Source: Chiloscyllium plagiosum
Taxonomy: Eukaryota
Length of the DNA: 64,000 nt
Direction: 5' to 3'
NCBI RefSeq assembly: GCF_004010195.1
Contig: NC_057751.1
Span: 14,665,951-14,729,950 of the forward strand
In this document: in pieces, positions 19,970 to 63,854 of the stretch
Layout: each line of letters begins with the position of its first letter
Numbering within the stretch: position 1 is the first letter of the stretch
Made by a program: the position numbers and the translations under genes
The notes under the pieces: model-generated
Told to the model about the DNA's origin: nothing
What the model saw: the letters and a program-made list of their open reading frames with translations, nothing else
Database searches by the model: none

Positions 19970-21010
19970 GTGCCAGGGGACAAGAGAGTGATGGTGGAGG
20001 GTTGTTTTTCGGACTGGAGAACTGTGACTAATGGTGTTCCACAGGGAACGGTGCTGGGTCCACTTCTGTTTGCCATTTATATTAATGATCGCGATGAAAA
20101 TGTAGAAGGCTTGGTTAGTCCGTTTATGGGTAACACCAAGGTTGGCGATACAGTGGACAGTGAATAAGTATATCTTCGATTATTAAGAAATCTTGATCAG
20201 TTGGGTAAAAATTAGTTGAGTAGCAGCAGGTGGAGTTTAACTTGGATAAATGAGACACATTGCATTTTGGTAAAACAAACGAGAACAGGACTTATACAAT
20301 TAAAATAGGACCTTGGGTGGCGTTGTAGAACAGAGAGAGACCAAGGGGCTCAGAAACCTAATTATTTGAAGTTTGCATCACAAATAGATAGGGTGGTTAA
20401 GAAAGCATTTAGCATGTTTGCCTTAATTGCTCAAACCTTTGAGTATAGGAGTTGGGGACGTCGTGTTGAAGATGTACAGGACATTGGTGAGGCCTCTTTT
20501 GGGTTACATTGTCCAGTTCTGGTTGCCCTGTTACAAGAAGGATATTGTTCAGCTGGAGAGGTTCAGAAGCGATTTACCAGGATGTTGCCAGGACTGGAGG
20601 GGATAAGCTATAAGGAGAGACTGGATAGGCTGGGTTTTTTTTTTCACTGGAGTGTAGGAGGTTGAGGCGTGACCTTACCGATGTTGATAAAATCATGAGG
20701 GGTATAGATAAGGTGAATGGCAGGGTGGGGGATTTCAAGGCTGGGGGCATAATTATAAGGTGACAGGTGAAAGATTTTAAAAAGACATGAGGGCAAGTCT
20801 TTACACAGACAGTGATTCATGTGTGGAATGAACTTCCAGAGGAAGCAATGGATGCGAGTACAGTTGCAATATTTAAAAAACATTTAGATGAGTACATGAA
20901 TGAGAAATGTTTGGAGGGATAGGGACCAAGTGCAGGCAGATGGGGCTAGTTTAGTTTGGGTTTACTTTTGGCATGGTTCCACTGAAGTGTCTGTTTCCAT
21001 GCTCTATTAG
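19970..21010 (+). mobile_element. CR1-clade LINE 3' fragment
   Basis: GVPQGTVLGPLLFAIYIND RT motif through to 3' tail. Confidence 0.9.
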
Positions 21011-21127
21011 ATTAGATTTCTGAGAGAAATGTTTGGAGGGATAGGGACCAAGTGCAGGCAGATGGGGCTAGTTTAGTTTGGGTTTACTTTTGGCATGGTT
21101 CCACTGAAGTGTCTGTTTCCATGCTCT

Positions 21128-21366
21128 ATTAGATTAGATTTCTGACAGTATGGAAACAGGCCCTTTGGCCCAACACGTCCACACCAAACCTCTGAAGAGT
21201 AAACCACCCAGACCCATTCCCCTATCCTATATTTTACCCCTGACTAATGCACCTATCATTGTGGGCAATTGAGCATGGCCAGTTCACCCTAACCTGCACA
21301 TCTTTCCATTGTGGGAGGAAACCGGAGCACCCAGAGGAAACCCACGCAGACACGGGGAGAATGTGC
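21128..21366 (-). mobile_element. HE1-type SINE cut by assembly gap
   Basis: Reverse complement of the consensus. Confidence 0.85.
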
Positions 21367-22960: not shown

Positions 22961-24486
22961 CACAAATCTTGAATTAAGAGTCGAACAATGACTGTGAAAC
23001 CAATGTCAATTGTCAAAAGGAAAACATCTGGTTCGCTGATGTCCCTTAGGGAAGGAAACTGCTGCTCTTTCCTCGTGTGACTCCAGACTGACAGAAATGT
23101 GGTTGACTGTTAACTGTCCTCTCGGCAATAAATACTGCCATAGTCAGCGGTGTCCCACAAAAGAACTATCAAACTAAAACCTCAAAATCCCGAGACATGC
23201 AGTGCCATTCTCTCTCCCCGTCCTTTGGCTGTCTCGCACTGCTTTCTTTCTGTCTTTCCTGTCTGAACTTTCTCTCCATCTCCCTCAGCCCATGTGTGTC
23301 ACGTGTCACTCTGACTGTTTCACTTTTCTCCGTCTCGTTTTATCCATTGGTTCTGTGATGTCTCTCGGCCAGTCTCATTTCCAGGACTTTTTGTGCTGAC
23401 TTGCGGTGAGGTATTTGTGTGGGATGTAAGCGGGGAAGGGGTGGGGGAGTGCAGGTGTTACTCCAACTCAGCTGGCTTCACAGCTAACACAGGAGTTGAA
23501 GGGTCTCAAGCTGTAGGAGAGATTTTGACTTCATTTCCACAAGCAATTTTGAAGTACCAAGTAAAATGAAGACATTTCGGGTAAGTGTTGCTCTGGTCCC
23601 ATTCAACTAAATGAACCTTTGTAATGACCTCCCTCTGTTTGATGTGGAGGTGCTGGTGTTGGGCTGAGATGGACAAAGTTAAAAATCACACAACACCAGG
23701 TTATAGCCCAACAGGTTTAATTGTAAGTACTAGCTTTCCGAGTGCTGCTCCTTCATCAGGTAGCTGTGGAACAGGATCAAAAATGCACAGAATTTATAGC
23801 AAATGACCACAGGAACATGCAACTGAAACGATATATTGAATAAACCGACATTGCCGTTAAGTTAATGAGTTTTGAGAAGATTTGTAGCTCAAGTTGAGGT
23901 TCTAGATGTAGGTTTGCTCGCTGAGCTGGAAGGTTCATTTCCAGATGTTTCGTCACCATACTAGGTAACATCATCAGTGAGCCTCCAGACGAAGCACTGC
24001 TGATGTTTCCTGCTTTCTATTTATATGTTTGGGGATCTTTGGGTTGGTGATGCCATTTCCTGTAGAACCCAACATATAAATAGAAGGCAGAAAAGATCAG
24101 CCGTGCTTCATCCGGAGACTCACTGATGGTGTTACCTAGAATAGTGACGAAACATCTGGAAATGAACCTTCCAGTTCAGCGAGCAAACCTACATCCATTG
24201 CTGTTAAGTCTTTGATCTTTTAGAATGGGTTGCAGGTTTTGGCTCATTGAAGTGTAAAACCTAGAACTTCTTTCAAGTCACATACTCGAGATAACAAAAG
24301 GTAACAAAGGACGCCACCTTTTTTAATAAAGTTATCTCGAGAATGTGACTTGAAAGAAGCTCTGGGATTAACATATTAATGAACCGACACTTGTTACCCA
24401 CTCTAAAAGAGGAAAGATTTTACAGAAATCTAAGTTTGTTCAATACATCATTTCAGTTGCAGGACACTGTGATCTTTTGCTATAAA

Positions 24487-25425: not shown

Positions 25426-26290
25426 ACTCCCAACACTGCTGCCCAGTGCTGAATAACCAAGTGCGAGGGCAAAACTCTGCAGGTCAAGCAGCTTCTGTGG
25501 AGAGAAAAAGGTTGGGTAGGCAGGGGTGTTTTCCTTAAAACAGAGGACAGTCATTGGGTGAGTTAATCGAGGTGGACAGATTGAGGGGCTTGTGTAGCGG
25601 GGACAGGGGAGACGTATTTCCTTTGGCAGAGACGTCAGTTACCAGAGTACACAGACTCAAGTAAAATGGCAGAAGGATGAGACAGGAAATAAGAAAAACA
25701 CTTATAAATCCAAAGGTCTGTGGCTATCCTGTTTGATCTGGAAACCATCCATTCATTTGGACTGCAGCTCGGGCCTTGCGCTACTCCAGCTCAGCTTGTT
25801 TCACAGCTAACAGGAGTCGAAGGGTCTCAAGCTATAGGAGAGATTTTCACTTCAGTCCCACAAACTATTGGAAAGTGGGATTAGAACGGGCAGATTAGGT
25901 TTATTCAGCTGATGCTAACACGGGGTCTCTTTCTGCACCCTCAACTTTGTGTGTGTGTTTGTGTAAGAGACAGAGTGAGTGAGAACGAGCTGGATTGTAA
26001 AGTTGAACATTGCTGTGCACTCTCTCTCTCTCCTAGGTGACCTGATTCGTCCTCTCTGGCGGTGCCCTCCCACTGATTTCTTCACCTTACAAAATGCCCA
26101 CCACGCGATAGAGGGCTGCCTGATTTCACCGTAAACCGCAGCAGAACTTGATGAGGCGGGAGCAAAGTGTAAGTGCACCCCGGCCTCAGGGTAGGCCGGC
26201 AGCTGGGGGCCTGTGCTGCACCTGGACTCTGAGACGGCCGGGCCCCTTGGCTGATTAGGCGAGACTGGGCCAGGACAGTGGAGGAGAGCA

Positions 26291-28689
26291 ATGGACAAGC
26301 TAGACAAGGCAGACGCCTGCCCACACGCCCGGGAACAGTTCGAGGGGCCACTGCCTCCGTCCTCCAGCTCGCGGCTGGACCTACGCTACGACCAGGAGCC
26401 GTCCTGCCAACACCAGACCAAAATCAAGGTGAGGACAGGGAACAAGGTGATGATATACCAGAGCGGACAGTCTCAGCAGCGGCCTCAATGTCGGCGGCCC
26501 CGGCCCAGGGGGCGCCCTCGCAGGCAGCGGCGGCAGAGGAAACCACGGCCCTGCATCATGGCAGCAGACAGGAAATCGGAGACCGCCTCAGAACCAGCGC
26601 CTGCACCGCCCAGCAAGAGCCCGTGGGAGCCCCGGAGCGCAGGCCTGGGCCTGGACGTGGCCTCTACATCGCAGGGGAAGTGTGCCTCCGCCGGCGAGCT
26701 GAGCGGCCAGTGCCCGGCCTACCCGAAGGAGATGCCCTACGAGCTGAGGGCGTACACGACATGGGCGGGCTCCAGGTGGATCAGGGGAGGGGCGCTGGCC
26801 ACCGCAGCTGACACACTGAAGCCAGGAAGGAAGGCCCAGGGCAAAAGGAAGCACGTGGAGGCCCCGGTTAGGGAGAAGGGCTGCCAGAACCCAGGCAAGA
26901 GGGGCTGCATGAACCCTGGGGAGAGGGGCTGCATGAACCCTGGGGAGAGGGGCTGCATGAACCCTGGGGAGAGGGGCTGCATGAACCCTGGGGAGAGGGG
27001 CTGCATGAACCCTGGGGAGAGGGGCTGCATGAACCCTGGGGAGAGGGGCTGCATGAACCCTGGGGAGAGGGGCTGCATGAACCCTGGGGAGAGGGGCTGC
27101 ATGAACCCTGGGGAGAGGGGCTGCATGAACCCTGGGGAGAGGGGCTGCATGAACCCTGGGGAGAGGGGCTGCATGAACCCTGGGGAGAGGGGCTGCATGA
27201 ACCCTGGGGAGAGGGGCTGCATGAACCCTGGGGAGAGGGGCTGCATGAACCCTGGGGAGAGGGGCTGCATGAACCCTGGGGAGAGGGGCTGCATGAACCC
27301 TGGGGAGAGGGGCTGCATGAACCCTGGGGAGAGGGGCTGCATGAACCCTGGGGAGAGGGGCTGCATGAACCCTGGGGAGAGGGGCTGCATGAACCCTGGG
27401 GAGAGGGGCTGCATGAACCCTGGGGAGAGGGGCTGCATGAACCCTGGGGAGAGGGGCTGCATGAACCCTGGGGAGAGGGGCTGCATGAACCCGAGACCCC
27501 CGGGGAGGGGTACTGCGAGACTCCCGGGGAGGGGGACTGCGAGACCCCCAGGGAGGGAGACTGCGAGACTCCCAGGGAGAGGGACTGCGAGACCCCCAGG
27601 GAGAGGGACTGCGAGACCCCCAGGGAGAGGGACTGCGAGACCCCCAGAGAGGGGGACTGTGAGACCCCCAGGGAGAGGGGCTGCCAGAATCTAGGAGAGA
27701 GTGGCTGTGACAGTGACTGCGAGACGCCCAAGGAGAGGGGCTGTGGGGCCCCCAGAGAGAGGGGCTGCGAGAGCACTGGGAAGAGAGACTGCGGAAACCC
27801 GGGGGAGGGAGACTGCCAGAACCCGGGGGCGGGGATGCTGCTGAGACGCACCCGCGGCCAGCTGGAAAAGGAGGGGGGGCAGCAGCTGTGCAGCTCCACG
27901 GACGAGGCCTACCCGCGCAGGATCAGAGAGAAAGGCTATCCCCTCAAGCGGTCGTACGGGGAGACCAAGGTGAACCTGCGGCTGGTCCAGGAGTCGATGG
28001 CCGCCGGCTGTGAGCAAGGAGAGGCCAGGCCTCGGCAGAGGGGACGGCCAGCAGGCCGGGGCTGCCTCAAGAAGCCTCGCCGCCAATGCACCGTCGCTGT
28101 GTCGGACGCCCAGACGCAGACCAATAAATCGAGTGGTCGCTGCAGCCCTGGCCACAGCAGCAGCAGCAGCTTCAGCCTGCCGTCCACCTCGGGTCAGTCC
28201 AGGCCCAGGCCCAGGCCCAGGCCCAGGCGCAGGCCCAGGCCCGGGCCTGCCAGGAGGAAGGGCAGCAGCCATACCTCTTCCCAGTCCTTGGTGGTGGGCG
28301 AGGGCCGCGCCAGTTCGGCGGAGGGAGAGGAGGAGGATGACGATGACGATGACAATGAGGAGGAGGACGACGATGAGGAGGAGATGGGGAGCAGTCGCAG
28401 CAGCCAGTGCTCCACGCCGTCCTCGGTGAGCTGCAGTGAGGAGCAGGCCGCAGCAGACCTCAAGCAGGCAGGTGGACCTGGTGTGGCCACCGAGCTGGTC
28501 CTCGCCCGGCCCCCTGGCAGGGCGCTGGCTGTGGCAGGCCCGCTGGGCTGCCGTCCCCACGGTGACAGGCGCAAGACGAGCTCCGGCCGTTCCCCGGCCG
28601 ACGTCGAGCGAACATGGCGCCGAAGGAGCCCGGTCCCGTCCTCTCAACCCCAACGCTTCCAGGACAACTGGGGCTGCCTCATCTTCTGA
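26291..28689 (+). CDS. Unrecognised single-coding-exon gene, ~800 aa after repairing one frameshift at ~27485-27492 (repeat-rich, low-complexity, C-terminal CaaX)
   Basis: GC/CpG-rich; Kozak gcaATGg; acceptor tcctag at 26036 upstream; ORF 26291 and frame 27493-28689 share an 8-residue Cys register; ends WGCLIF*; AATAAA at 28805. Confidence 0.65.
26903..27492 (+). repeat. Perfect 24-bp coding minisatellite (GGCTGCATGAACCCTGGGGAGAGG)x24 plus a partial unit; degenerate copies continue to ~27834
   Basis: Directly visible; encodes GCMNPGER. Confidence 0.97.
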
Positions 28690-28804
28690 GCGGCTCACTT
28701 TACCCATTCCCCACCTCCCCCCCACCACTGACCCCGGGCTCTCTTTAGCCCTCTCCTCACAGCTAACAATGACTGTACATAACCTGCAAAGCTTAAATAA
28801 TAAT

Positions 28805-28810
28805 AATAAA
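28805..28810 (+). terminator. Candidate polyadenylation signal of the orphan gene
   Basis: AATAAA ~115 nt after the CLIF stop; GT-rich sequence downstream. Confidence 0.55.
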
Positions 28811-31509
28811 CAGAAAAGAGCAGATTACCGACCAACAAAAGTGGGGTTTGTGCAGGACGTGGGCAGGTGCGGGTGAGGGTCTGCTGCCCACCGAGAATAG
28901 GGGGGTGGTGGGGGTGGTGGTGGGTGTGGGGCAGGGGTTGTGCTCAAAAGACACCAGTTCCCAGCAACCAAGGAGAGATGCAGGGGAAACCAGTCGGTGT
29001 GCGCGCGCGCGTGTGTTGTGGCTGCAGGCACTGAGGGGAAGGGCTTTCACACCAGGCTGCCGGAGGGCACGGTGTTCAGAAACGGCGCCAGCAAAGGGTG
29101 GCCACCAGACCTGTCTCGGACACAGGACGTTGTAGAGCAGCCCCGCCCCCCGGTTCTCCCTCGCATTCTCTCATCCCGAGGGATTCTTATCCCAACCCGC
29201 TCCACTTCGCATTTCAACACGTTATGGATTCGGAGGAGACCGTCGTGCCTGTTCATTGAGAGAGCTGACAAATTCGCCCGTTCCGTTTTCCTTTCTTTTT
29301 TAAGGCTGTTGTTCCAACTGTTTCCGGCCATGCATTCTTGAGCACAACAATGTCGTCCTTCGAAAACCCAAATTCTCCTCATCCTCCCTCTCTTTCTCCC
29401 CGGGAATCAATTACCCCCACGTCCCCACCAGTGAAGACAGATCCTCCTTGTTTTGCCCGTCACACCCCGACGGGAGTTGGAAGCCCCTGTTAAGTCTCCC
29501 CTCCCACCTCCCCTATTGGAAGGAGAACACCTTCAGTTTCACCAGTCCCTGTATGTAATTGAGCCCCCTCATCCCTCAGCCACTCCAGTGAAACGCCTCT
29601 CCACCTTGACGTCCTCCCTAAGAGTATGTGTAGGGGTGGGCAGGGAGGGTGATGCTCAGAATGGAATGGAGTCCTCCACCTGGAGCTCACCCCATGGTAG
29701 CGAAAGGTTCAGCTCTTGCTTTTGTACTTTGCACCTGATTTAATAAAGCCAAAGACACCTTCTGCCTTTTTAATGGCTTCTCAACTTGTCCTGCCGTCTC
29801 TGAAGACTGTGTGTGTGTGTGTGTGTGCGTATCCCTGGTTTCTGTCTCTCTGTCTGATCTTGAAGACTTTTCGCACTGTACCATGCAGCTTACACACCAC
29901 GCAGGTGTGCCTGTTTGTGAAGGTGAACATGCAGTCTATCAGAGCTATTGGGCTTTTGTTGAAAGTGCAAATGCTGCGGCACTTTGCTCTGTCCTGATTA
30001 GAGCAGTCGAGAAGGGAAGTGTGGGTATAGATGAGTGTGGAATTCCCGAATCTATCCTGACGAGCTGTACAATGTTTCTTTGCCCCATCACATTTGATCC
30101 AACTGAGATCTGCAGAAGTAAGCCAGGGACTGTGCCCAATTTCTCTGGGAATCAAGGGTCCCCGTGTTATTGAATGTCACGCAAGTGTAAATATACCAGT
30201 TTAGGTTTTACAAGCAAGGGAGGCATCTCACAGCCATCCCCTGAGAGATAGTTTCCCTCACCTGTCACCTCAAAGGTATTTTTCCCTCGAAAGTTGTTGG
30301 CGGTGTGAGCTGAAGTTGTGAATGATGGGAATAACAGTTGATTCCTTCAACAGTTGACGTATAAAATCTCAGGAAAAGGTGGAGGAAATTGGGTGAAGGA
30401 GGGGCGGGGGGACAAATCAGGCAGAGAAAAAGAGTGATTGAGTTAAAGGAAAAAGGAATTTTTTAAAAAAGTATGTCCCCAGCAACAGTAGATGACCTGC
30501 AGAGATGACAGCCCACATTTCACTTTCCTTCTGTGTCGGAGTGAATGACATCACAGGAACAGGAAGTCCATCCATTAAAAAAAAGTCTTTCCATTGATGA
30601 ATATAAGCCCAAGCTTTCTTATTTATATTTCATGCACAAATCCAGCAGTTTCATGGTGAGGCTGACTGAATGTGCGCTTGTGCCATTTTAATGTGACTTT
30701 TACACAGAAAGGCAGGAATTTTTGGCAACTCACAACATATGCTACCTTTGATCACAAGCCTTTGGATAGCTTGTACAATGATCACTGTGAGCACTATTAA
30801 TCTCAATGTTACTTTGCTGGCAAACGCTGCTCAAAGATTTCTTGAAAGCTGCAAGATTTTAAAATATGGGAGAATTTTGACTTTAAACCTGACTTGCTTT
30901 CAGGATCTAGAGTGCAGTCCTGTGGCATTTTGACAGAAAGAAAAGCATGTTCCCCAATCCCTCACTGTCTCCTAACAGGGCTGTATCTACACACGCTGTT
31001 ACCATAGAAGAAAACCACTCTTCAAGTTAAATCCTGCTCAGCACGCTGTTGAACAATGGGAGCGTTCACTATAACCAAACCTGTACCACCAATGCAGACA
31101 CAATGCAGTGATCAGGAGCCTGGCAATATAAAGAATGATTGCATTTGTATAGCCCCTTTCAGAATCTCAATCCATCCCAAGGTCTTTTACAAAAACCCAC
31201 AGTCTATTTGAAGCTCGCTAATATAGGAAATGAACAACTCAGCAAACTGTCACAAACAACAATGAAGTCAAAACAAGCAATCTGTTTTAATGGTAGCTGA
31301 CGGGTTAATATTGGCGACAGGATAACTCTCTGAAACACTGCAAAATCATATCAATCTGGAATCTTTTGTCCTGAATGGAATTCACAGTCCAACACTGTTT
31401 TCCAGACGACTGCAGTATTGGTCCTCCAACTGCAGCACTCCTTCAGGAATGCCCCGAGCATGGACAAATGCTGCCTCAGCAGAGATTCTACACTTGTACG
31501 GCGAGCCCT

Positions 31510-34378
31510 CAGCACTGCCATCCAACTCCCTCAGTACTGACCCTCTGACGGTGCAGCACTCTCTCAGTACTGAACCTCTGACAGTGTTGCCTCCCTCACT
31601 ACTGACCTTCTGACAGTGCGGCACTCCCTCAGTACTGACCCTCTGACACTGCTGCGTTCCCACAGTACTGACCCTGTGAGAGTGCGGCACTCCCTCAGTA
31701 CTGACCCTCTGACAGTGCGGCACTCCCTCAGTACTCACCCTCCGACACTGCTGCGTTCCCACAGTACTGACCCTGTGTCAGTGCGGCACTCCCTCAGTAC
31801 TGATCCTCTGACAGTGCAGCACTCCCTCAGTACTAACCCTCCAACCGTGCAGCAATCCCTCAGTATTGACCCTCCAACAGTGAGGCACTCCCTCAGCACT
31901 GACCCTCTGACAGTGCAGCGCTTCCTCAGCACTGACCCTCTGACAGTGTGGCGCTCCCTCAGTACTGACCCTCTGACAGTGCATCACTCCCTCAGTACTG
32001 ACCCTCCAACAGTGCGGCACTCCCTCAGTACTGATCCTCCGACAGTGCGACCCTCCCTCAGCAATGACCCTCCGACAGTGCAGCACTCCCACAGCACTGA
32101 CACTCCGACAATGTGGCACTGACTCAGTACTGACCTTCTGACAGTACAGCACTCCCTCAGTACTGACCGTCTGACCGTGCTGCGTTCCCACAGTACTGAC
32201 ACTCTGACAGTGCAGCACTCCCTCAGTACTGACCCTCCAACCGTGCAGCACTCCCTCTGTACTCACCCTCTGACAGTGCGGCACTCCCTCAGTACTGACC
32301 CTCTGACACTGCAGCGTTCCCTCAGTACTGACCCTCTGACAGTGCGGCTCTCCCTCAGTACTGACCCTCCAACCATGCAGCACTCCCTCAGTATTCACCC
32401 TCTGACAGTGCGGCACTCCCTCAGTACACACCTTCCAACCGTGCAGCACTCCTTCAGTACTGACCCTCTGACAGTGCGGCACTCCATCAGTACTGACACT
32501 CTGACAGTGCAGCACTCCCTCAGTACACACCTTCCAACCGTGCAGCACTCCCTCAGTACTGACCCTCTGACAGTGCAGCACTCCCTCAGTACACACCTTC
32601 CAACCGTGCAGCACTCCTTCAGTACTGACCCTCTGACAGTGCGGCACTCCATCAGTTCTGACACTCTGACAGCCTAGGACTCCCTCAGTACTGACCGTCC
32701 AACAGTGTGGCACTCCCTCAGCACTGACCTTCTGACAATGCAGGACTCCCTCAGTGCTGACCCTCTGACAGTGCAGCGCTCCCTCAGTACTGACCCTCTG
32801 ACAGTGCGGCACTCCCTCACTACTGACCCTCTGACAGTATGGCCTCCCTCAGTGCTGACCCTCTAACACTGCGGCACTCCCTCAGTACTCACCCTCCAAA
32901 TGTGCGGTGCTCCCTCAGTACTGACCCTCTAACAGTGCAGCATTCCCTCAGTACTGACCCTCTAACAATGCGGCACTCCCTCAGTACTGACCCTCTAACA
33001 GTGCATCACTCCTTCAGTACTGACCCTCCCACAGTGCGGCACTCCCTCAGCAATGACCCTCCGACAGTGCAGCACTCCCTCAGCACTGACACTCCGGCAA
33101 TGTGGCACTGACTCAGTACTGACCCTCCGACAGTGCAGCACTCCCTCAGTACTCACCCTCAGGCAGTACGGCACTCCCTCAGTACTGACCCTCTGACAGT
33201 GCAGCACTCCCTCAGTACTCACCCTCAGACAGTACGGCACTCCCTCAGTACTGACCATCCAACAGTGCAGCACTCCCTCAGTACTGACCCTCTGACAGTG
33301 CAGCACTCCCTCAGTACTGACCCTCTGACAGTGCAGCACTCCCTCAGTACACACCTTCCAACCGTGCAGCACTCCTTCAGTACTGACCCTCTGACAGTGC
33401 GGCACTCCATCAGTACTGACACTCTGACAGTCCAGGACTCCCTCAGTACTGATCCTCCGACAGTGCGACCCTCCCCCAGCAATGACCCTCCGACAGTGCA
33501 GCACTCCCTCAGCACTGACACTCCGACAATGTGGCACTGACTCAGTACTGACCCTCTGACAGTGCTGCACTCGCTCAGCACTGACCCTCCAACAATACTG
33601 CGCTTCCACAGTACTGACCCTCTGACAGTGCAGCACTCCCTCAGTACTCACCCTCAGACAGTACGGCACTCCCTCAGTACTGACCCTCTGACAGTGCGGC
33701 ACTCCCTCAGTACTGACCCTCTGACACTGCTGCGTTCCCTCAGTACTGACTCTCTGACAGTGCGGCACTCCTTCAATACTGACCGCTAGCAGTGCAGCAC
33801 TCCCTCAGTACTGACCCTCTGATGGTGCAGCACTCCTTCAGTACTGACCCTCTGATGGTGCAGCACTCCCTCAGTACTGAACCTCTGACAGCGTGGCCTC
33901 CTTCAGTATTGATCCTCTGACAGTGCAGCACTCCCTCAGTACTGACCGCTAGCAGTGCAGCACTCCCTCAGTACTGACCCTCTGATGGTGCAGCACTCCC
34001 TCAGTACTGAACCTCTGACAGCGTGGCCTCCTTCAGTATTGATCCTCTGACAGTGCAGCACTCCCTCAGTACTCACCCTCTGACAGTACAGCACTCCCTC
34101 AGTTCTGACCGTCTGACTGTGCTGCGTTCCCACAGTACTGACACTCTGACAGTGCAGCACTCCCTCAGTACTGACCCGCCAACCGTGCAGCACTCCCTCT
34201 GTACTCACCCTCTGACAGTGCGGCTCTCCCTCAGTACTGACCCTCTGACACTGCTGCATTCCCTCAGTACTGACCCTCTGAGAGTGCGGCTCTCCCTCAG
34301 TACTGACCCTCCAACCGTGCAGCACTCCCTCAGTACTCACCCTCCGACAGTGCGGCACTCCCTCAGTACACACCTTCC
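31510..34378. repeat. 32-bp satellite array (~90 units, same family and orientation), truncated by gap
   Basis: Visible tandem periodicity. Confidence 0.95.
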
Positions 34379-47856: not shown

Positions 47857-47953
47857 TTATATGAGCTGGACCGCTCCACTGGCCACAAGGGGAGCGATGG
47901 TCTTGTATCTCATTAAGTGTTGGGTGCCTTCCTCCAGATCAACAGTGTACTCC
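47857..47953 (-). CDS. GINS4: GINS4 coding exon 7 (terminal)
   Basis: EYTVDLEEGTQHLMRYKTIAPLVASGAVQLI*; seven exons sum to 684 nt = 227 aa + stop. Confidence 0.97.
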
Positions 47954-48442
47954 CTGCGGGGATGCAAACAAAGAAACGTACAGAGGGGCTTGGAGATGGC
48001 AGTGCACCACGACACGATCTCTCGACGCGGGGAACCTTCCCCTTTTACACCTTGAAACCCAAGGGTCAAACAGGAAAATCTGCTCATCTCCAGCGACTTC
48101 ACCCCCAAACCGTCTCATCCCGACATTCCCGCACATCTTGGTCACGGTCACGAGCGGGGAGACACTGGTGCAGCGGGAATGTCTCACCAGAGGCCTGGCT
48201 GTGCGGTCTGGGGACATTCACTGAGCGGGAACCGTGAGCTCCCCTCCCAGCAACAGCGACCGCGAAACTGCTGCCAATAGTTGTAAGAATTGCCCCACCT
48301 CAGGACAGTCCTTTTGAGAAGGAAATCTGCCGTCCTCACGTGGTCTGGCCTCGAACTATTCAAGTCAAGGCGACAGGCAACAAAAGCCCACGCTTGCTGA
48401 GGTGCAAAGGACAGACTCATCCTTCCCCTCCAGTTTCTACTT

Positions 48443-48940
48443 AGAATCATTGAATCCCTACAGTGTGGAAACAGGCCCTTCGGCCCAACCACTCCACACC
48501 GACCCTCTGAACATGAACCTACCCAGGCCCATTCCCTTTATGATCTTATATTTACCCCTGACTAATGGACCTAACCTGTACATCCCTGAGCACTATGGGT
48601 AATTTAGCATGGCCAATCCACCCTAACCTGCACATCCCTGAGCACTATGGGTAATATAGCACGGCCAATCCACCCTAACCTGCACATCCCTGAGCACTAT
48701 GGGTAATTTAGCATGGCCAATTGACCTGACCTGTACATCCCTGAGCACTATGGGTAATTTAGCATGGCCAATTGACCTGACCTGTACATCTTTGGACTGT
48801 GAGAGGAAACCGGAGCACCTGGAGGAAACCCATGCAGACACGGGGAGAATGTGCAAACTCCACACAGACAGTCGCCCGAGGCTGGAATCGAACCCAGGTC
48901 CCTGGCGCTGTGAGGCAGCAGTGCTAACCACTGAGCCACC
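48443..48940 (-). mobile_element. HE1-type SINE with internal ~52-bp segment repeated about four times
   Basis: ACATCCCTGAGCACTATGGGTAATTTAGCATGGCCAAT repeated within 48574-48790. Confidence 0.88.
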
Positions 48941-49883
48941 AGGTGATACCGGGTGAGTGGACAGCAACAGCCCCAGGAATGAATCTCCACACGCGCCCTC
49001 GGTCTGATTCACCGACAGGCTTGGCCAGGAGCATACTGTACTTTTGGTTGGTGTGACATGGTGCATTCTGGGAGGACGAACAAGACAAGGGAGTGCAGGA
49101 TTGACAGCTGGACTGTCAGAAGGAGAGGGGATCAGAGCGGGCTGGATGCAGATGGCCACAGATCGTTGCAGGACAGGTGGTGGATGGGACACTTGCCTTT
49201 GTTAGTTGAGCTGTTAAACGCACGAGCAGGGGCTGTACGTAATGTTAGGGAGGCCGCTAGGTGCAGTGCTGGGCCACGACAATATCGGATAACTGCATCA
49301 GAGAGGAGATTCACCAGGGTGTAGCCTGGGCTGGGGAGCAACTCAATGACGGAGAGAGACTGGGACGGTTCTCCTCAGAGCAGAAGGGTTTGCCTGATCA
49401 GGGTGTCCAAAGTGACAAAGGCTATACACAGAGGGAAAAAAAATTGCATCTAACCTTTGTGGAAGAATTAATGAGCAAGGACTGTAGGTTGGTGGCAGGA
49501 GGTTTAGTGGGGATTTTTTTTTTCATCCAGATGGGAATCTGGAACCCCCTCCTTGGGAGGGTGGGAGAGTCAAGAAGTGACAGAACATGGAAGGAATATT
49601 TCGAGGTGAACTCGGTAGGTCCGAAGGCCGTGGGCCAGGTGCCAGGAAATGGGATGAGGAGGAACGGATGTTTAATGAGCGGTAAAATCAACGAGGTAAA
49701 AACCCAATGGATCCCACGGCCTCTTTCTGTGCTGTCTGACACGATGGGACTGTGCTGCCTGGCACTGAGCAACCACTGTCCAGCCGGTATGGAGGGTATC
49801 TCAGGCACAGAAAGAGCAGGAGGGTCCAGCGCAGCTGCCAGCAAGCCACAGACACCGGGCACATCCAACGCCACTCGCCCTAC

Positions 49884-49974
49884 CTCTGATCCTCAGTCTC
49901 CGGTTCCACCAGGATGTTTTCCTGCCTCTCCTTGACCCGCAGAAAGACAAAGGAATCCAGGTTGGGTCTGGGAA
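49884..49974 (-). CDS. GINS4: GINS4 coding exon 6
   Basis: VPRPNLDSFVFLRVKERQENILVEPETEDQR, AG/GT, phase 1-2. Confidence 0.96.
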
Positions 49975-50695
49975 CTAACGAGAGAAACACCGTCGGATTA
50001 CAAAGTCGCCGAGGGGACTCAAAAACCTCGCCGCGGTGTCTGTTCTTCCGGACATTAACCCAACGGGGTGGGAAGTGAAGTCGTCAGCGTCAACACGAGA
50101 AAAGGCCATCAATCCTGGCTGAGCCGGGGCCTCAACTGCACACCATCCCACAGAGACCAGAATCCCACCCAAGTATCTCAGCCGTCAAGGACACAGAGTG
50201 ACCCACAACCCTCTGGGGGAGAGAAATCCTCAGGTTCAAAGGTCTCCGAGCAAGGACCTCTCTCCTCAGCTCGGTCCCACCCGGTGATCCGCTCGTTGAT
50301 CCCGAGACTGTGCCCCACCCCGTCCTCGATTTCCCCAGCCCCCCCCGGATGAACACTCAACCTCTCAGTGTTCATCCACACACGCAGCCCCTTCACCAGC
50401 TTGTCCATTTCGATGAGATCCCCACCCCTCCATCTCAACCCCAGTGATGACTGATTCCGACTTACTCAACCTCAACCCCTCTGGTCCTGAGGACTGACTC
50501 GGTCCGAGCTCTGCTGGATCACCCCACGCAGCTGGGATACGCTTCCTGACATCCGGACAGCAAAGCTCCAATAGCTTCTCCGACACAGCGCTCACCGCTC
50601 GGAGACGGGAGAGGCGTGGGAAGAGACGGTGGTCTCTTCCCTCGTTCAAAGAGGGTCGATATGGATTCAGGGGCTGGCCAGAGGAACACACTCAC

Positions 50696-50784
50696 CGGCT
50701 TTGGAGAAGTCCAACGCCTGCAGGTTGGGAGGCATGTGTTTCAGGGCCAAGCTCTTCAGGCAGGTCTCGCAGTTGGCCGCGTAC
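50696..50784 (-). CDS. GINS4: GINS4 coding exon 5
   Basis: YAANCETCLKSLALKHMPPNLQALDFSKA, AG/GT, phase 2-1. Confidence 0.96.
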
Positions 50785-52461
50785 CTGTGGGGCAGATCAG
50801 TTCAGTGAGGAAGGAGCAGCCTTCAAGACTCCCGTCCGCGCTCCTGCACCTCTGTCTGCAACCCAGTGGTGGGACATCGTTGCTACCAGCAGCCTGACTG
50901 CATCGCAATGCTAACCTGTCTCCAAGTGCAGTGAACCACAGTCTGTGTGCTGCATCCCCGACAAAGCGACTTCCTCCCCCTGCCCGGCACGTTCAATCAT
51001 TCCCTTCTCTGGATAATTATCCGTCGGAATGCAGATGCCGTTCCGCACCTCCCCCTCATTCAAAACGGTATCGTTGGCTTTTCCGTTCAATTTCAGCGAC
51101 AGGCTCAAAACCTGACCACCGAGGTCCTCTCCCACTCACAGCTCCCGATTTCAGTCACCCCAGGGATTCCTGATGAGGCACCCCAGCGAAGACAGGAAAA
51201 AAAAAAGCAGTTCCTCCCCAGAGGAACCTCGGGCAGTCACGTGGATTTGGAGCAATTTGGAATCCGAACAAAGATGGATGTTCCTGTCCGTGGCAGGAAG
51301 CAGGGAGAAGTCGGCACGCTCAGCCCAGAGTGGGAATGAATACGGATTTTCCCATCGACAGCAGGGAGGGATCGGCACGTGCTGACCCAGAATGGGAATG
51401 AGCAGGGATTTTCGTGCAGAAAGCAGGGAGCAATCAGCACGTTCTGACTGCTCAGTGGCCACAGTTATGAGGGCGTGTACTGTCCCTTTAAGAGAGAGTG
51501 AATTCTGTTCTGAACTGAGAGCTGAGAAGTACCTGTGTGACATGACTGGATGGCAGTCCCACAGTGGACTGGAAAACTGACAACATGTAGCATTTGGCTG
51601 AGAAATGGATACCCGAGCTTTGGTTGCTGTTTTGACATCAATTCCAACTTAACCAGTCGGTTTAAAATATGTCCCAGGATACTAAAACCCAAATGAGTTT
51701 GAATTTATCGTTTTGCCCACAGCGAACCAATGAGATGATCCGATGTCAGGGATATAAAAATGTGGACATTTTGAAAATTGGAGCGAGAGCAAATGCCGTT
51801 CAGACAGGGCGAGCCAACATCTTGTTCCACAACAAATTAGGAAACACTGTCTCTCAAAGGCACCTTTTCATATGAAACAAATCGCAGTAAAAAGAAAGAA
51901 GACGACCCAGGGAGATCTTCAGTCGGAAGACAGAAGACACAGAAAACGACAGCAGCTGTGTGGTTTTGAAATTAAGGTGATATAATTTGAATAAGTGTTT
52001 TACTGGAACAGCAAATTGTTAGAGAGTTGGAGGCAAGTAATAAGCAGTTAAGAGAAAGGGGCGGCTTAGTGTTGTGAATAGATGTTTAATGTTCACTTTT
52101 AGGGTTAAAAAATAAATTGATGTTATTGTAATTCAATAGTGGAATTTGGGAATTCTCTGTCACTCACATTTTAACAGATTACAAGGCAAAGTGAGCTTTT
52201 CAGGATGGTAACAGAGGAATTCTCCACAGACTGGAGAAAACAAATCTGGAACCTTCAGAACAGGTGAAACTCCACAGAAGGCCAGATACCTTTGTTGGAG
52301 CTGGGGTTGAAAGGAGTGAGATTGAATTCATTGCTGACCATTGCTCCCGCACCCACCCCAAACCGATCAACCTCAGTGTCAGTCGCTCCACCCGAAGATC
52401 CCACAGCTGTCGGCCTGTACTTTCGCCCCATCTCTCTCTCTCTTGCTCTCCATGCACTCAC

Positions 52462-52559
52462 TCTTTCGCAAAGGTGTATTCTTGTGGAGACAAATAGGCA
52501 GGCTCTGCCTCAAGACGGGATTTCTCCTTCTCCAGGATGTGAGGGAAAAACTTCTCGAT
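52462..52559 (-). CDS. GINS4: GINS4 coding exon 4
   Basis: IEKFFPHILEKEKSRLEAEPAYLSPQEYTFAK(E), AG/GT, phase 0-2. Confidence 0.96.
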
Positions 52560-52955
52560 CTGAGAATTACAAGAAGGGAAAAAAAAACACCCAGCTGACT
52601 TCCTCTGGACACTTTAAAAATAAGACGCAAACTTTCAGGCAAACGATCCAGGTCCGAATCGAGGGACAGTGATGTTGGTCCTGGACTCGCAATCTGGTTA
52701 ATGTTCTGGAGGTTTGACTGAAATACCACACAGCGGTGGGGAGAATTAATACATTTATCTGAAGTGGGACACAGGTCCCTTCGGACTGTGGTAAAAACAG
52801 GTCCTCTCATGTGCATCAGGGAGGCCATCCTGACCTGGTCTGGCCTAGCTGTGACTCCAGATCCACTTCAATATGGTCAACTCTCCAGGGCTGTCTGAAA
52901 CAGCCAAGTGGGCTGCTCAATTGTGCCCAACTGCTGCACTGTGTGGGGGCCCCGA

Positions 52956-53999
52956 GACACACACACACACACACACATACATTCACATACACGCACACTC
53001 ACAGACACACACACTCACTGACACACACACATACATACACACACAGATACATACTCACAGACACACACACATACATACATACACACACACGCACACTCAC
53101 AGACACACACGCGCACACTCACAGACACACACACATACATTCACACACATGCACACTCACAGACACACACACATACATTCACACACATGCACACTCACAG
53201 ACACACACACATACATTCACACACATGCACACTCACAGACACACACACATACATTCACACACATGCACACTCACAGACACACACACATACATTCACACAC
53301 ATGCACACTCACAGACACACACACATACATTCACACACATGCACACTCACAGACACACACACATACATTCACACACATGCACACTCACAGACACACACAC
53401 ATACATTCACACACATGCACACTCACAGACACACACACATACATTCACACACATGCACACTCACAGACACACACACATACATTCACACACATGCACACTC
53501 ACAGACACACACACATACATTCACACACATGCACACTCACAGACACACACACATACATTCACACACATGCACACTCACAGACACACACACATACATTCAC
53601 ACACATGCACACTCACAGACACACACACCATACACACACAGGCAGACACACTCACTCAGACACACACAATCACTTGTATACACAGAGAGACATATACACA
53701 CAGAGGCATACACACACAGAGGCAGACACACACAGAGACATACACACACACAGGCAGACACACTCACTCATACACACAAAATCAACTATACACACACAGA
53801 GACATAGACACACACAGGCATACACACACACAGGCAGACACACTCACTCAGACACACACAATCACCTATACACACACATAGACATACACACACACAGAGA
53901 CATACACACACAGAGACATACACACACACACAGACATACACACACACACACAGACATAGACATACACACACAGACATACACACACCCACACACACACGA
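52956..53999. repeat. CA-rich microsatellite containing a near-perfect 38-bp minisatellite (~13 copies, ~53115-53628)
   Basis: Unit ACTCACAGACACACACACATACATTCACACACATGCAC. Confidence 0.92.
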
Positions 54000-54054
54000 G
54001 ACAACAAACGCCATTCACCCTTTCACATAGATGCTCAAGTGTACAGCAGAAGTT

Positions 54055-54082
54055 CTGATGAAGGGCTTTTGCCCGAAACGTC
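54055..54082 (+). ncRNA. Minimal hammerhead ribozyme core, intact
   Basis: CTGATGA-A-GGGC-TTTT-GCCC-GAAA-C-GTC; flanks GAAGTT/GATTTT can pair with G-U wobbles. Confidence 0.65.
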
Positions 54083-54329
54083 GATTTTCCTGCTCCTCAG
54101 ATGCTGCCTGACCTGCTGTGCTTTTCCAGCATCACTCTAATCTAGACCCTGGTTTCCAGCATCTGCAGTCCTCACTTTTGCCCACTGTTCAGTGGGCACA
54201 CTAACTCCACCATATCCAGTCACCTCCCCAGCACGCACGTCAACAAAGGTGAAATGGTGGCCTTAATGGATTGTGCACAGACTCACTGAGCTTTGCTCCC
54301 TCACAGGCTGAGGAATGAAACCTGTGTAC

Positions 54330-54443
54330 CTTCTGCAGACGTGACCGCAGGTAACTGCTAAGGACGTAGCGAATCCTCTCGGTCTCCATTCGGTGGATGG
54401 TGACTTTCAGATCGCCCTTCTTTGCTCGCTGCAGGTTCTGTTC
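54330..54443 (-). CDS. GINS4: GINS4 coding exon 3
   Basis: EQNLQRAKKGDLKVTIHRMETERIRYVLSSYLRSRLQK with canonical AG/GT. Confidence 0.97.
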
Positions 54444-55537
54444 CTGTGAAGAGGATTGAAAGGCAGGTGGGGTGAACCAGCAGACCCTCAGTTTAAGGCA
54501 CATCAAGGTCGGTGCAGCTTAGGTGAACTGGCCATGCTAAATTGCCCGTAGTGTTAGGTGAAGGGGTAAATATAGGGGACTGGGTCTGGGTATGTTGCTG
54601 TTCGGAGGGTTGGTGTCGACTTGTTGGGCTGAAGGGCCTGTTTCCACACGAAGTAATCTAATCATTCTTTGAAGTTTGCATCACATATAGACAGGGTAGT
54701 TGAAAAAGCACTTAGCATGCTTGCCTTCATCACTCAGTCCTTTGAGTATAGGAGTTGGGATGTCATGTTGAGGATGTACAGGACATTGGTGAGGCCTCTT
54801 CTGGAGCACTGTGTCCAGTTCGGGTCTCCCTGTTATAGGAAAGATATTATTAAGCGAGAGGGGGGTTCAGAAACGACTTACCAGCATGTTGCCGGGAACA
54901 GAGGGCTTGAGTTGTCGTGAAAGGCTGGATAGGCTGGGACTCCTTTCACTGGTTGAGGGGTGAGCTATGAGTGCAAAGTTGCGACTACTGTGAACCAGCT
55001 TGTCCTCAAAGTGATTGGAACAAGGTCAGCTCGGTGGATCTTTTCGAAGATGAGCTGGCTGACAGGTATAAACAGGAGTGTTCGGGATTCTGCACAATCT
55101 CAGAGCCAGCTCTGAGTTAGCTGGATCAGTACCATGTACTATGCACGTGTAAATAAAGGGTGACTGGGTGACAGGATACTGGCCTTCTTGAAGTTCAGTG
55201 CACTACCCAGGATTTTGGAGACAGCCTCTCGCTCCCCTTTGCTTTCACCATGACGGCATCTTAGCCGGTCAGAGTTGACACGCCAACTAATCAACTCCCT
55301 TTTCTCCCCATCAAACAAATCATTCCGACTGTTCGAAATGCGCCATTCTGGCATTTGTCCTGATGACTCGGGCAACTCGACAAAAATCAACTGCCAGGTG
55401 AATCGTCGGACAGCAGATCCTTATCATTACATCTGGCAGGGAAATCAGGGGCTGGCTGAGTCTGTCAACCGCAAACTCAATGGTGCATTGAACAAATGTT
55501 GTCTGCTCCACCCCAACAAAAGGTCCAAAACCGTTAC

Positions 55538-55624
55538 CATGTGATCGAGCTGTTCCATTACACACTCCACAATCTCAGCTTTGTGTTCGAGAAGGTCAGG
55601 GGAAAATTTCTCATTCAGCCACGC
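55538..55624 (-). CDS. GINS4: GINS4 coding exon 2
   Basis: cag|AWLNEKFSPDLLEHKAEIVECVMEQLDHM|gtaac. Confidence 0.96.
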
Positions 55625-56408
55625 CTGTATGGAGATGAGGGACAGCCAGAGTTAGTAACGATAAGAGGAGACAGAATTCCAAACTGAATATCAGAGAACT
55701 ACCAAAACCCACACTGCAGACAGCTGTGACGTGATAGTTTTACAATGCAGGAACGTCAATTTGATTTACCATTGTCACAGGGACTAACTGACAATGAAAA
55801 ATATTGTTTTATGTGCAAACCAGACAAATCATTCCTCACATATATACATCAAGGTAACAGAATATAGTCCATGACTATCTTCCCAAGGGCGCTGCAAAGT
55901 CAAAGTGCATGAAGAAACCTCACCATCCAACCCTGGGATCAACGTGGGACATACAATTAAGTCTAGGAATTCCTGAGATAAATCGGACAGAGAAACCTCT
56001 CGGAAAGCCCTGTAACAGGGAGAGACAGGTCTCACCAGCAAGAAACAGCCAGAACAGGGGAGCAGCAACGAGACCGCACATCCGCTTACCAGTGAAGGGA
56101 ATGTGTTTAAAACAAAAATCTCACTGGGTGTGGGTGTCACTGGCAGAGGCAACACTTATTCACATCCCGAACTGCCCCCTTGAGAAGGTGGGGGTGGGGC
56201 TGAGCTGCCTTCTTGGCCCCCCCCCAGTGCCCTGAGGGAGGGAGTCCCAAGATTCTGACCCAACAGCCGATATATTTCCAAGTCGCAGACGGTGAAGGGC
56301 TGGAGGGGGAACTTGCAGGGGGGTGGTGTTCCCATGTACCTGCTGCCCCTTGTCCTCCCCGATGGAAGTGGCCGTGGGGTTTGGAAGGTGCTGTCTGAGG
56401 AGCCTGGG

Positions 56409-56560
56409 NNNNNNNNNNNNNNNNNNNNNNNNNNNNNNNNNNNNNNNNNNNNNNNNNNNNNNNNNNNNNNNNNNNNNNNNNNNNNNNNNNNNNNNNNNNN
56501 NNNNNNNNNNNNNNNNNNNNNNNNNNNNNNNNNNNNNNNNNNNNNNNNNNNNNNNNNNNN
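56409..56560. other. Assembly gap in GINS4 intron 1
   Basis: N run. Confidence 1.
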
Positions 56561-56735
56561 ACATCTACCCCCCCATCCAACCCCCCCTCCCCCAACCAGG
56601 GCAAGTGGGGTGTATTCCCTCACACACCCTCCTGACTTGGGCCTTGTTTCTGGGCTCTGGGGGGGGGGGGGGAAGGCTCATGCTCAGTGTGGGATCTTGC
56701 TGTGCACCCCCCCTCCCCAGGGGTTGACCCCTCAC

Positions 56736-56843
56736 CTCCTCCAGTTTCCCAATGAGCTCAGCCGGGGTCAGGATCATCTCCTCCTCCTCCTCGGGGTCCC
56801 CTCCACCCACCATCACCGCTTCCCCTGCCTCCTCTTCGGCCAT
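56736..56843 (-). CDS. GINS4: GINS complex subunit 4 (SLD5), coding exon 1
   Basis: MAEEEAGEAVMVGGGDPEEEEEMILTPAELIGKLEE|gtgag; LTPAELI motif of SLD5. Confidence 0.93.
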
Positions 56844-62856: not shown

Positions 62857-63430
62857 CTGAACCAGAGAGACAGAGAGGACGTTCATATACCTTGTAGGTG
62901 GTTTCTGTACATCTGCAAACATCAGCAAGAGGGCAAGGGGACACACAGGCAGGCAGGATATCGGGACAGGACTGTATGTGTATGTGTCAGTATGTGAGTT
63001 TGTCAATTTGCTCATCTGTCCACCCATGTATCTGTGTGTGCACCTGAGTGTGTGTAGCATGTACGGTATATGCTTACATCTGCGCGCAAGTGTGTTGTGT
63101 ATACTTGTGCACCTGTAAGTATATATGAATGTGCTCTGCAGGAGAGCGACTGTGAGACTGCGTGCGTGCGTGCGTCTGTGCAAGTGAGTGCGAGAGACAG
63201 ACAGACAGGGGGAGTGCTTTGGGGGGGGTGGAGATGTTGGGGGTTGGGAGAGCGCGCGCGCGCGCGAGAGAGAGAGAGTACGCGTGAGAATCTGTTCACA
63301 TATGATCGAGAGAGAACGTTTTGTCTGCAGCGTGTCAGCATGTTTGTGTGTATGGTTTGTGCACACCATCTCTGCCCAGGGAGCGATGAGCACCTCCCGC
63401 ATCCGTCCCCCACTGTGACAGCTGACTTAC

Positions 63431-63622
63431 CGGAATCAGAAAGGGAGAGCTTACTGAGTGCAGCGTCAAGTTGCCCATCCATCCCCTCAGGCTTGGCTTG
63501 TCCCTGTTTAACAGCAGGGGACATGGGCAGCTCAGGCACATCTGGGAGCAGAAGCGTCTCATCAGCCGCCCTGTCCAGAAGAGCGTTCAACTCAGCTTCC
63601 AGTTCATCAGTATCCACAGCTT
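63431..63622 (-). CDS. CHMP7: Charged multivesicular body protein 7, penultimate coding exon
   Basis: AVDTDELEAELNALLDRAADETLLLPDVP...LDAALSKLSLSDS|gtaagt resembles the CHMP7 C-terminus (ELEKELDILL...LPDNP...LEKLSLSE); phase 1-1. Confidence 0.85.
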
Positions 63623-63854
63623 CTGGGCACAAGAGACAAAAGCAGCAGTGACACACTGAGCAGGCACAAGGAGGCATTCAGCCCTTTCAGTCTAGACTCA
63701 AACTCGAGAAGTTCATGCTGATCTGATAGGGGGCGTCAACTCCTGGTTACGGTCCCGCCCCTTGTACACTACCTACTCAAATGAAAAATCTAACTCCGTC
63801 TGGGATAAAGACGAAGACCCAGCCGCCACTGCCTGGAGGAGAGAATTTCACCTC

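Follow-up and report, generated by a model that had tools for sequence, protein, structure and literature searches.

What does the GC-rich block at 26291–28689 of this stretch of Chiloscyllium plagiosum DNA (64,000 nucleotides of contig NC_057751.1; hereafter the window) encode, and where in the cell might its product act? A reading of the letters alone, made without database searches (the sequence-only reading), had described an orphan gene of about 800 amino acids (aa) whose product carries AT-hook-like motifs, cysteine octapeptide repeats, a TQT motif of the type bound by the dynein light chain LC8, an acidic tract and a C-terminal CaaX box. We find that the gene is single-copy and conserved in five sharks belonging to two orders, and that the CaaX end and the TQT motif are kept in both. 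The break in its reading frame is likely an error of the assembly. From the conserved motifs, we tentatively propose that the product is a disordered, prenylated and LC8-dimerised tether that would reach its anchorage, the inner nuclear membrane, by nuclear import.

A single-copy gene conserved in two orders of sharks

The predicted coding span begins at the ATG at 26291, within GCAATGG, and ends with CLIF and its stop codon at 28675–28689 on the plus strand. Its 2399 nucleotides (nt) are not divisible by three: the frame opened by the ATG closes at a stop at 27692–27694, and everything from the second repeat type on, including RQRGRP, TQT, the acidic tract and CLIF, is written in another frame. 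Both coding halves are open beyond chance (p = 0.012 and 0.003), and their GC content at third codon positions (GC3) is 0.80 and 0.82, against about 0.6 at positions 1 and 2. The block, with a GC content of 0.65–0.67, has no match elsewhere in the 164 kb made up by the window and its upstream DNA and is therefore free of local interspersed repeats, as the sequence-only reading had it.

When the N-terminal 200 residues were used as the query, one of 1339 candidates matched, a partial protein from Scyliorhinus torazame that aligns with both frames of the window. Run against 1.84 billion representatives, a profile built from three sequences, without the C-terminal third, matched four of them at E ≤ 0.001. 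All four are from sharks: the S. torazame protein, a fragment from Chiloscyllium punctatum and two pieces from Rhincodon typus, the whale shark. The C-terminal profile returned three matches at E ≤ 10 among the 8000 best candidates scored, again all from sharks, and added S. canicula XP_038641582.1 (447 aa). S. torazame also has a full-length RefSeq protein in the same cluster, XP_072341588.1 (479 aa), and the C. punctatum orthologue, GCC43450.1, is partial. The gene is thus found in Carcharhiniformes and Orectolobiformes, orders that split roughly 200 million years ago, and is no orphan. Identity to the catshark protein is 89/181 aligned residues (49%) in the N-terminal half (26291–26870) and 113/227 (50%) in the C-terminal part; the two Scyliorhinus proteins share 73%.

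Within its own genome the gene matches once. No paralogue was found there, the next-best match having an E-value of 1.95 and a stop inside; the tail pattern occurs at one other genomic place, where a stop codon replaces the Trp, and other genomic DNA matches involve the acidic tract only. Protein profile searches found no relative outside sharks (ray, chimaera and bony-vertebrate genomes were not searched as DNA), and a C-terminal search among proteins of 490–2000 aa gave none at E ≤ 1, which is weak evidence with 8000 candidates scored. On these comparisons the gene is shark-restricted, as far as searched. The two frames of the window have no exact entry in the protein collection, and in the literature covered, which excludes supplements and subscription journals, we found nothing on the gene, the shark accessions or the tail peptide. 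The sequences themselves are public already, in models that are either uncharacterised or wrongly labelled; what appears new is the motif architecture that is conserved and our reading of it.

Conservation separates short motifs from expandable repeats

The elements listed by the sequence-only reading are all where it had placed them: RPRGRPRR at 26501, RQRGRP at 28033, SDAQTQT at 28102–28122, RPRPRPRPRRRPRP at 28201–28242, the acidic tract at 28321–28383 (21 residues: 19 Asp or Glu, one Gly and one Asn) and the CLIF end, as well as the splice acceptor, the ATG and an AATAAA at 28805. When the 470 residues outside the repeats were shuffled 20,000 times, two RGRP cores arose with p = 0.002, TQT alone with p = 0.05, TQT with an upstream Asp or Ser with p = 0.001, and a strict CaaX end with p = 0.001. 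Because the motifs were chosen after being seen, conservation outweighs these values as a test.

Across the sharks, the invariant runs are GNKV, SEPA, CASA, RKAQ, PLKR, TKVN, DAQTQT, PSTS, CSTPSS, RRRS and QDNWGCLIF. The last of these, which with its stop codon occupies 28660–28689, is identical in all four sequences that reach the end (the whale-shark piece stops before it). By permutation, nine invariant columns at the very end are expected with a chance of 0.0001, and such a run anywhere with 0.03. In the LC8-type motif (28087–28125), DAQTQT at 28105–28122 is invariant in 5/5 species. Several other kept blocks resemble import signals: K/R-E-x-PY-x-LR (26726–26758) is a candidate proline-tyrosine nuclear localisation signal (PY-NLS) and RKAQ-x-KRK (26828–26851) a candidate basic NLS, each kept in the 3/3 sequences that cover it (the former as K/R-x2-PY), and the PLKR-[ST]-YG-[DE]-TKVN block (27910–27984), present in 5/5, may be an import signal or a partner-binding site. 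GNKV-x-YQ (26438–26461) and SEPA (in 26576–26599) are further conserved blocks of the N-terminal half. Towards the C terminus, CSTPSS (28408–28425) is invariant in 5/5 and would make a candidate proline-directed phosphosite, and two basic clusters, DRRK and RRRS (28564–28629), lie upstream of the CaaX box as a candidate second membrane signal.

The AT-hooks fared differently. Both GRP cores are present in C. plagiosum, but the first, in an Arg-rich basic patch (26501–26548), is missing at the aligned position in 3/3 other species; the basic character of the patch is kept, and in S. canicula a PRGRP lies slightly N-terminal of this position. The second lies in an Arg-Gly box (28024–28050) that reads RGR in 5/5 species and full RGRP only in the three carpet sharks. 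The acidic tract is long only in C. plagiosum and C. punctatum, the longest Asp/Glu/Asn runs in the five species being 19, 22, 7, 5 and 2 residues (7 in the whale shark), and the Arg-Pro repeat at 28201–28242 also varies in length. In the catsharks the long cysteine array is reduced to a few degenerate units, with Cys at eight-residue spacing twice per protein versus 14 times in the window's C-terminal frame alone. We read the cysteine repeats and the acidic tract as lineage-specific expandable spacers rather than part of the core.

The break in the reading frame is likely an assembly error

The sequence-only reading had crossed the change of frame silently. The shift falls at about 27490–27493, the far end of cysteine octapeptide array A (26871–27492; 25.9 copies of a 24-nt unit, 98% matches), where array B begins (27493–27849), a C-E-T-P-R type with seven T-P-R/K sites that C. 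punctatum also has. In one public sequencing run (X1, study P1; DNA by guess), a single 329-nt contig bridges the junction. It matches the array side over 68 letters and the far side over 108, and in the middle it has 67 letters in place of the window's 3. The contig thus holds a net 64 extra bases, and the reading frame is therefore restored. A contig from a run of another study (X2, study P2) has 52 of the extra letters before 27493 and does not reach the array side, and the two catsharks encode the protein as a single open reading frame (ORF) of 447 and 479 aa. To judge from these sequences, the frameshift in the C. plagiosum assembly is likely an error, a collapse of about 64 bases.

The copy number of array A is probably inflated in the assembly, which predicts about 23.5-fold depth for the perfect-repeat loop of the array; in X2, read whole, the depth of this loop is 5.4, versus 47–55 in the unique flanks. 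With the array as assembled, the protein would be 820 aa long; a short array would bring it down to about 674 aa, a figure that assumes a direct join of two contigs, so that the earlier length of about 800 aa becomes a range set by repeat copies.

A predicted lipid-anchored, LC8-binding protein

We next consider what the conserved motifs would do. The CaaX cysteine would very probably be modified by farnesyltransferase or geranylgeranyltransferase I: in 4/4 complete ends CLIF has what a CaaX box requires, a cysteine as the fourth residue from the C terminus followed by a pair of aliphatic residues and a permitted X, and Phe-ending boxes such as CVIF are described as substrates of both prenyltransferases (PMC1175975). 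LC8 would, with good probability, bind the TQT motif, join two chains and so double the lipid anchors. The flanks agree with the LC8 rule, having Asp at −4 in 5/5 species, Asp or Glu at +2 in 4/5 and no pre-anchor proline; binders are reported to tend to Asp at −4, Asp, Glu or Pro at +2 and no pre-anchor proline (PMC6607443). On balance, the basic clusters or the PY motif would then drive import and the anchor would reach the inner nuclear membrane, as an NLS-CaaX reporter does. K/R-x2-PY is the C-terminal pattern given for PY-NLSs (PMC2408616), and for action on the nuclear membrane an NLS and a CaaX box are reported to suffice, as in a green fluorescent protein fusion, GFP-NLS-CaaX, with the Drosophila protein Kugelkern (Kuk) as a natural example (PMC2947476). 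More tentatively, the Arg-rich patches might be in contact with chromatin, RNA or acidic lipid, with release tuned by Ser/Thr-Pro sites.

The chain itself is likely disordered, as had been suggested. The model has no confident fold (mean predicted local distance difference test, pLDDT, of 40; predicted template modelling score, pTM, of 0.14; alignment of four sequences), with pLDDT in the 30s around the TQT motif, and the Atlas model has a pLDDT of 0.39. There is no transmembrane-type hydrophobic segment in the protein (maximal 19-residue hydropathy 0.96). No Pfam family scored above its cut-off, the sub-threshold matches reflecting acidic composition only; a profile search of the PDB gave two matches at E 1.8–1.9, which are noise; the ESM Atlas gave no usable feature match (template modelling score ≤ 0.20); and Rfam had no matches in the window.

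Prenylation, LC8 binding and an inner-nuclear-membrane location are best taken as likely predictions from conserved motifs. Because CaaX and TQT are conserved across two orders, the membrane anchoring and LC8 binding proposed earlier gain support; the nuclear-envelope tether of the sequence-only reading is a part that we, too, only infer. Neither kind of finding that would have refuted the sequence-only reading was made: related sharks keep the ORF, and the searches matched no known family or mobile element. We favour a tether at the inner nuclear membrane because CLIF, TQT and the conserved candidate import signals occur together and because NLS-CaaX and Kugelkern provide a precedent, and we put the whole proposal at a little under an even chance. 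A bolder version is rather unlikely in full: a shark non-lamin, lipid-anchored inner-nuclear-membrane protein that would be a vertebrate counterpart of Kugelkern built from short motifs, with LC8 in place of the coiled coil, PY-x-LR or an Arg-Gly patch gripping nucleosomes, and the expandable Cys/Thr-Pro repeat setting the length of the tether from chromatin to membrane.

A number of observations weigh against the proposal. The species sample is phylogenetically clumped, with two catsharks and three carpet sharks. A six-column invariant run somewhere in the alignment is common by chance (p = 0.44), so the weight of DAQTQT comes from the motif having been named beforehand, and the GRP motifs are not conserved, the second keeping its proline in 3/5 species. 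The CaaX linker has Gly at −1 and mostly polar residues, but its invariant Trp at −2 departs from the small, hydrophilic linker described as usual for prenylation substrates (PMC1175975). C. plagiosum itself has Asn at +2 of TQT, and many TQT peptides are reported to fail to bind LC8 (PMC6607443). A low pLDDT from a four-sequence alignment is weak proof of disorder. As for the coiled coil that Kugelkern needs, the model contains only short, low-confidence helices (the longest of 21 residues), and no dedicated predictor was run. Finally, no listed public run that carries the sequence is on record as RNA.

Alternative explanations

Proteins of the K-Ras4B type reach the plasma membrane by the classic signal of a basic cluster joined to a prenyl group, and such polybasic targeting is well established. 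This counts against a nuclear location and for a different one, in which the same prenylated, LC8-binding disordered protein is a scaffold at the plasma membrane or endomembranes, its basic clusters lying on acidic lipids and its cysteines perhaps palmitoylated. That a scaffold of this kind is the true answer seems possible, if on the unlikely side. In all four complete ends the 30 residues before the CaaX box hold 6–7 Lys or Arg versus 2–3 Asp or Glu, the AT-hooks are not conserved, and Phe at the X position is described as permitting geranylgeranylation (PMC1175975). However, the basic clusters of the tail lie 15–40 residues from the cysteine and do not adjoin it, and import is the easier reading of the conserved PY and basic motifs, which are hundreds of residues away from the tail.

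The remaining alternatives concern what the gene is. Intronless and GC-rich, with a coding region of one exon, the ORF recalls viral chromatin tethers through its TQT and CaaX motifs, its Arg-Gly boxes and its Tyr-x-x-Arg, and PY-x-LR has the Tyr/Arg spacing of the Y537/R540 nucleosome anchor described for foamy virus Gag (PMC6042332, PMC9040877). Y-x-L-R has a chance of p = 0.05 in the shuffles, however, and we treat this likeness as a lead only. A viral or retroelement gene domesticated before the two shark orders split is very unlikely: the gene has one copy, terminal repeats were not seen, reading the window's ORFs of ≥130 aa by eye turned up no long ORF of viral type, and none of 54 pattern matches in IMG/VR (a poor sample of animal viruses) was confirmed. 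A mobile element or endogenous viral gene as such was rejected on the single copy, the lack of confirmed viral relatives and the lack of a Pfam match over the cut-off. It is less far-fetched, though still improbable, that the gene is a fast-evolving member of a wider vertebrate family, which may even have a name in bony vertebrates, and that its relatives escaped the searches through divergence or low complexity. Disordered proteins drift fast, and identity here falls to 49% within galeoid sharks; the exhaustive profile lacked the C-terminal third, the C-terminal searches scored the 8000 best candidates only, and no translated-DNA search of ray, chimaera or bony-vertebrate genomes was made. 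Against this stand the matches themselves, which came from sharks in both profile searches, and the absence of a relative in Pfam, the PDB or the Atlas and of a paralogue in the genome. Scarcely credible is a genuine shift, in this individual or the species, at a locus that would be a decaying pseudogene or null allele. The assembly itself shows the frameshift, none of the listed runs is known to stem from the assembled animal, and a single-cell RNA run (X21) gave 0 reads in the roughly 2% of it that was read, too small a sample to test expression. Yet the X1 contig is in frame across the junction and X2, from another study, has the same extra unit; both halves are stop-free with coding-type GC3, and the C. 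punctatum protein, 91% identical where the two align (361 residues), ends in the same way.

Predicted transcript limits

A pyrimidine tract and splice acceptor AG at 26021–26036 would start an exon at 26037, and 26037–26290 is likely the 5′ untranslated region (UTR) of the coding exon. It contains an in-frame stop just before 26255 and two upstream ORFs, of 5 aa at 26094 and 35 aa at 26151, neither in frame with the main ATG. The likely 3′ UTR, 28690–29747, has two AATAAA signals, at 28805 and 29742, with TGTA before each. X2 is labelled DNA by guess. It cannot be whole-genome coverage of 3.56 Gb because its contigs total 177 million letters, at a depth of 47–84 over the gene. Its contigs cover the 3′ region to 29568 and end there, while those of X1 continue; on the 5′ side, to judge from contig spans and if collinear, an X2 contig stops at 26034, 3 nt short of where the exon is predicted to start, and an X1 contig would extend to 25288. 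The second AATAAA fits the X2 contigs better than the signal at 28805 alone. These limits support expression indirectly, in that they fit a spliced transcript whose 3′ end lies near 29742, the alternative being an enrichment library over the CpG-rich block.

A further run, X19 (RNA by guess), covers 27875–28113 at a depth of 3.5, too little to use. X19 is labelled as another organism and matches these 239 bases without a difference; DNA runs with the same organism label share only 0.26–0.28 of sampled words. Carry-over could explain the match, as could a mislabel or conservation of this stretch.

Genomic neighbourhood

On its upstream side, at a distance of about 72 kb, the gene has a STAMBP exon on its own strand; GINS4, on the other strand, ends about 19 kb away. 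GINS4 (SLD5) occupies 47860–56843 on the minus strand, with its first exon at 56730–56843 and its last exons recognised by Pfam SLD5_C. Beyond it, 63015–63677 (minus strand) encodes a Snf7-like C-terminal exon (E 0.058), presumably CHMP7-like and thus from a nuclear-envelope factor of the endosomal sorting complexes required for transport. Upstream of the window are the STAMBP exons (L020 2479–4550, plus strand) and a TFIIB-type zinc-ribbon exon that we take to be BRF2 (L024 6291–6443, minus strand). The LC8 genes of the shark could be recovered only exon by exon; an intronless, degenerate ORF of the dynein-light-chain family (L031 1444–1758, G000:C19) is probably a retrocopy.

Two copies of a 90-nt element (87% identical) precede the acceptor, at 23459–23548 and 25782–25869, and another lies on a small contig, at G000:C68524:203–299. 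The element has three genome matches and no Rfam match; an 11-nt core of it is seen again in the 3′ region, near 28757, and it could be a duplicated non-coding exon or an enhancer. Elsewhere in the window, two exact 122-nt tandem copies at 20902–21145, shortly before an N gap, are likely another assembly artefact, and 33-nt minisatellite arrays at 867–1822 (28.9 copies) and 31525–34369 (86.4 copies) form long repetitive open frames outside the gene.

Comparison with known systems

If the nuclear reading is true, the gene would be a lineage-restricted vertebrate addition to the short list of prenylated nuclear-membrane proteins, which includes Prickle1 and CENP-F, and a natural test of whether an NLS, an LC8 motif and a CaaX box alone make a nuclear-shape or chromatin tether. 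Even as a plasma-membrane or endomembrane scaffold, it would be an uncharacterised gene kept in two shark orders, with a wrong label in one RefSeq record, a split model in two draft proteomes and a frameshift in the C. plagiosum assembly. The mislabelled record is that of S. canicula, named 'serine/arginine repetitive matrix protein 1-like' (SRRM1). Like SRRM1, the protein is rich in Arg, Ser and Pro. SRRM1 is defined by a PWI domain and long arginine-serine (RS) repeats; the S. canicula protein has no Pfam domain at all, and therefore no PWI domain, and 5 RS/SR dipeptides in 447 aa. We rejected this identity, and the label looks compositional.

Other resemblances are also partial. An AT-hook is defined as a GRP core flanked by basic residues (PMC4615771), and the C. 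plagiosum protein resembles HMGA in having an acidic stretch and, in basic surroundings, two GRP cores. In the catsharks neither the hooks nor the acidic tract are conserved; there is no AT_hook Pfam match at E ≤ 1, the protein is far longer, and it ends in CaaX, so this relationship was rejected. K-Ras4B, R-Ras2/TC21 and the paralemmins share with it the basic residues upstream of a CaaX box. In the shark protein, unlike these, the basic clusters are 15–40 residues from the cysteine, and no GTPase or paralemmin domain is matched. The CaaX box of TC21 is likewise described as Phe-type (PMC1175975). Clients of LC8 (DYNLL1/2) have in common with it a TQT with Asp at −4 and mostly Asp or Glu at +2, in a likely disordered chain; the shark protein differs in having one motif, paired with a prenylation signal.

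The closest parallels to the predicted inner-nuclear-membrane tether are proteins of the nuclear membrane itself, of which a 2010 paper names only lamins and Kugelkern as prenylated (PMC2947476). B-type lamins share the CaaX end and basic import-type signals upstream of it, but a lamin was rejected: neither an intermediate-filament rod nor an Ig-fold tail was matched in Pfam or the PDB, and the model has no long helix. The shark protein resembles Kugelkern and GFP-NLS-CaaX in being non-lamin, in its C-terminal CaaX box, in its NLSs (candidates in the shark protein) and in its predicted reliance on lipid alone as the inner-nuclear-membrane anchor (PMC2947476). The profile searches gave no non-shark match, and hence no sign of homology to Kugelkern. 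The shark CaaX box ends in Phe, and the location is predicted only. Whereas an N-terminal putative coiled coil is reported to be needed for Kugelkern function (PMC2947476), dimerisation of the shark protein would use LC8.

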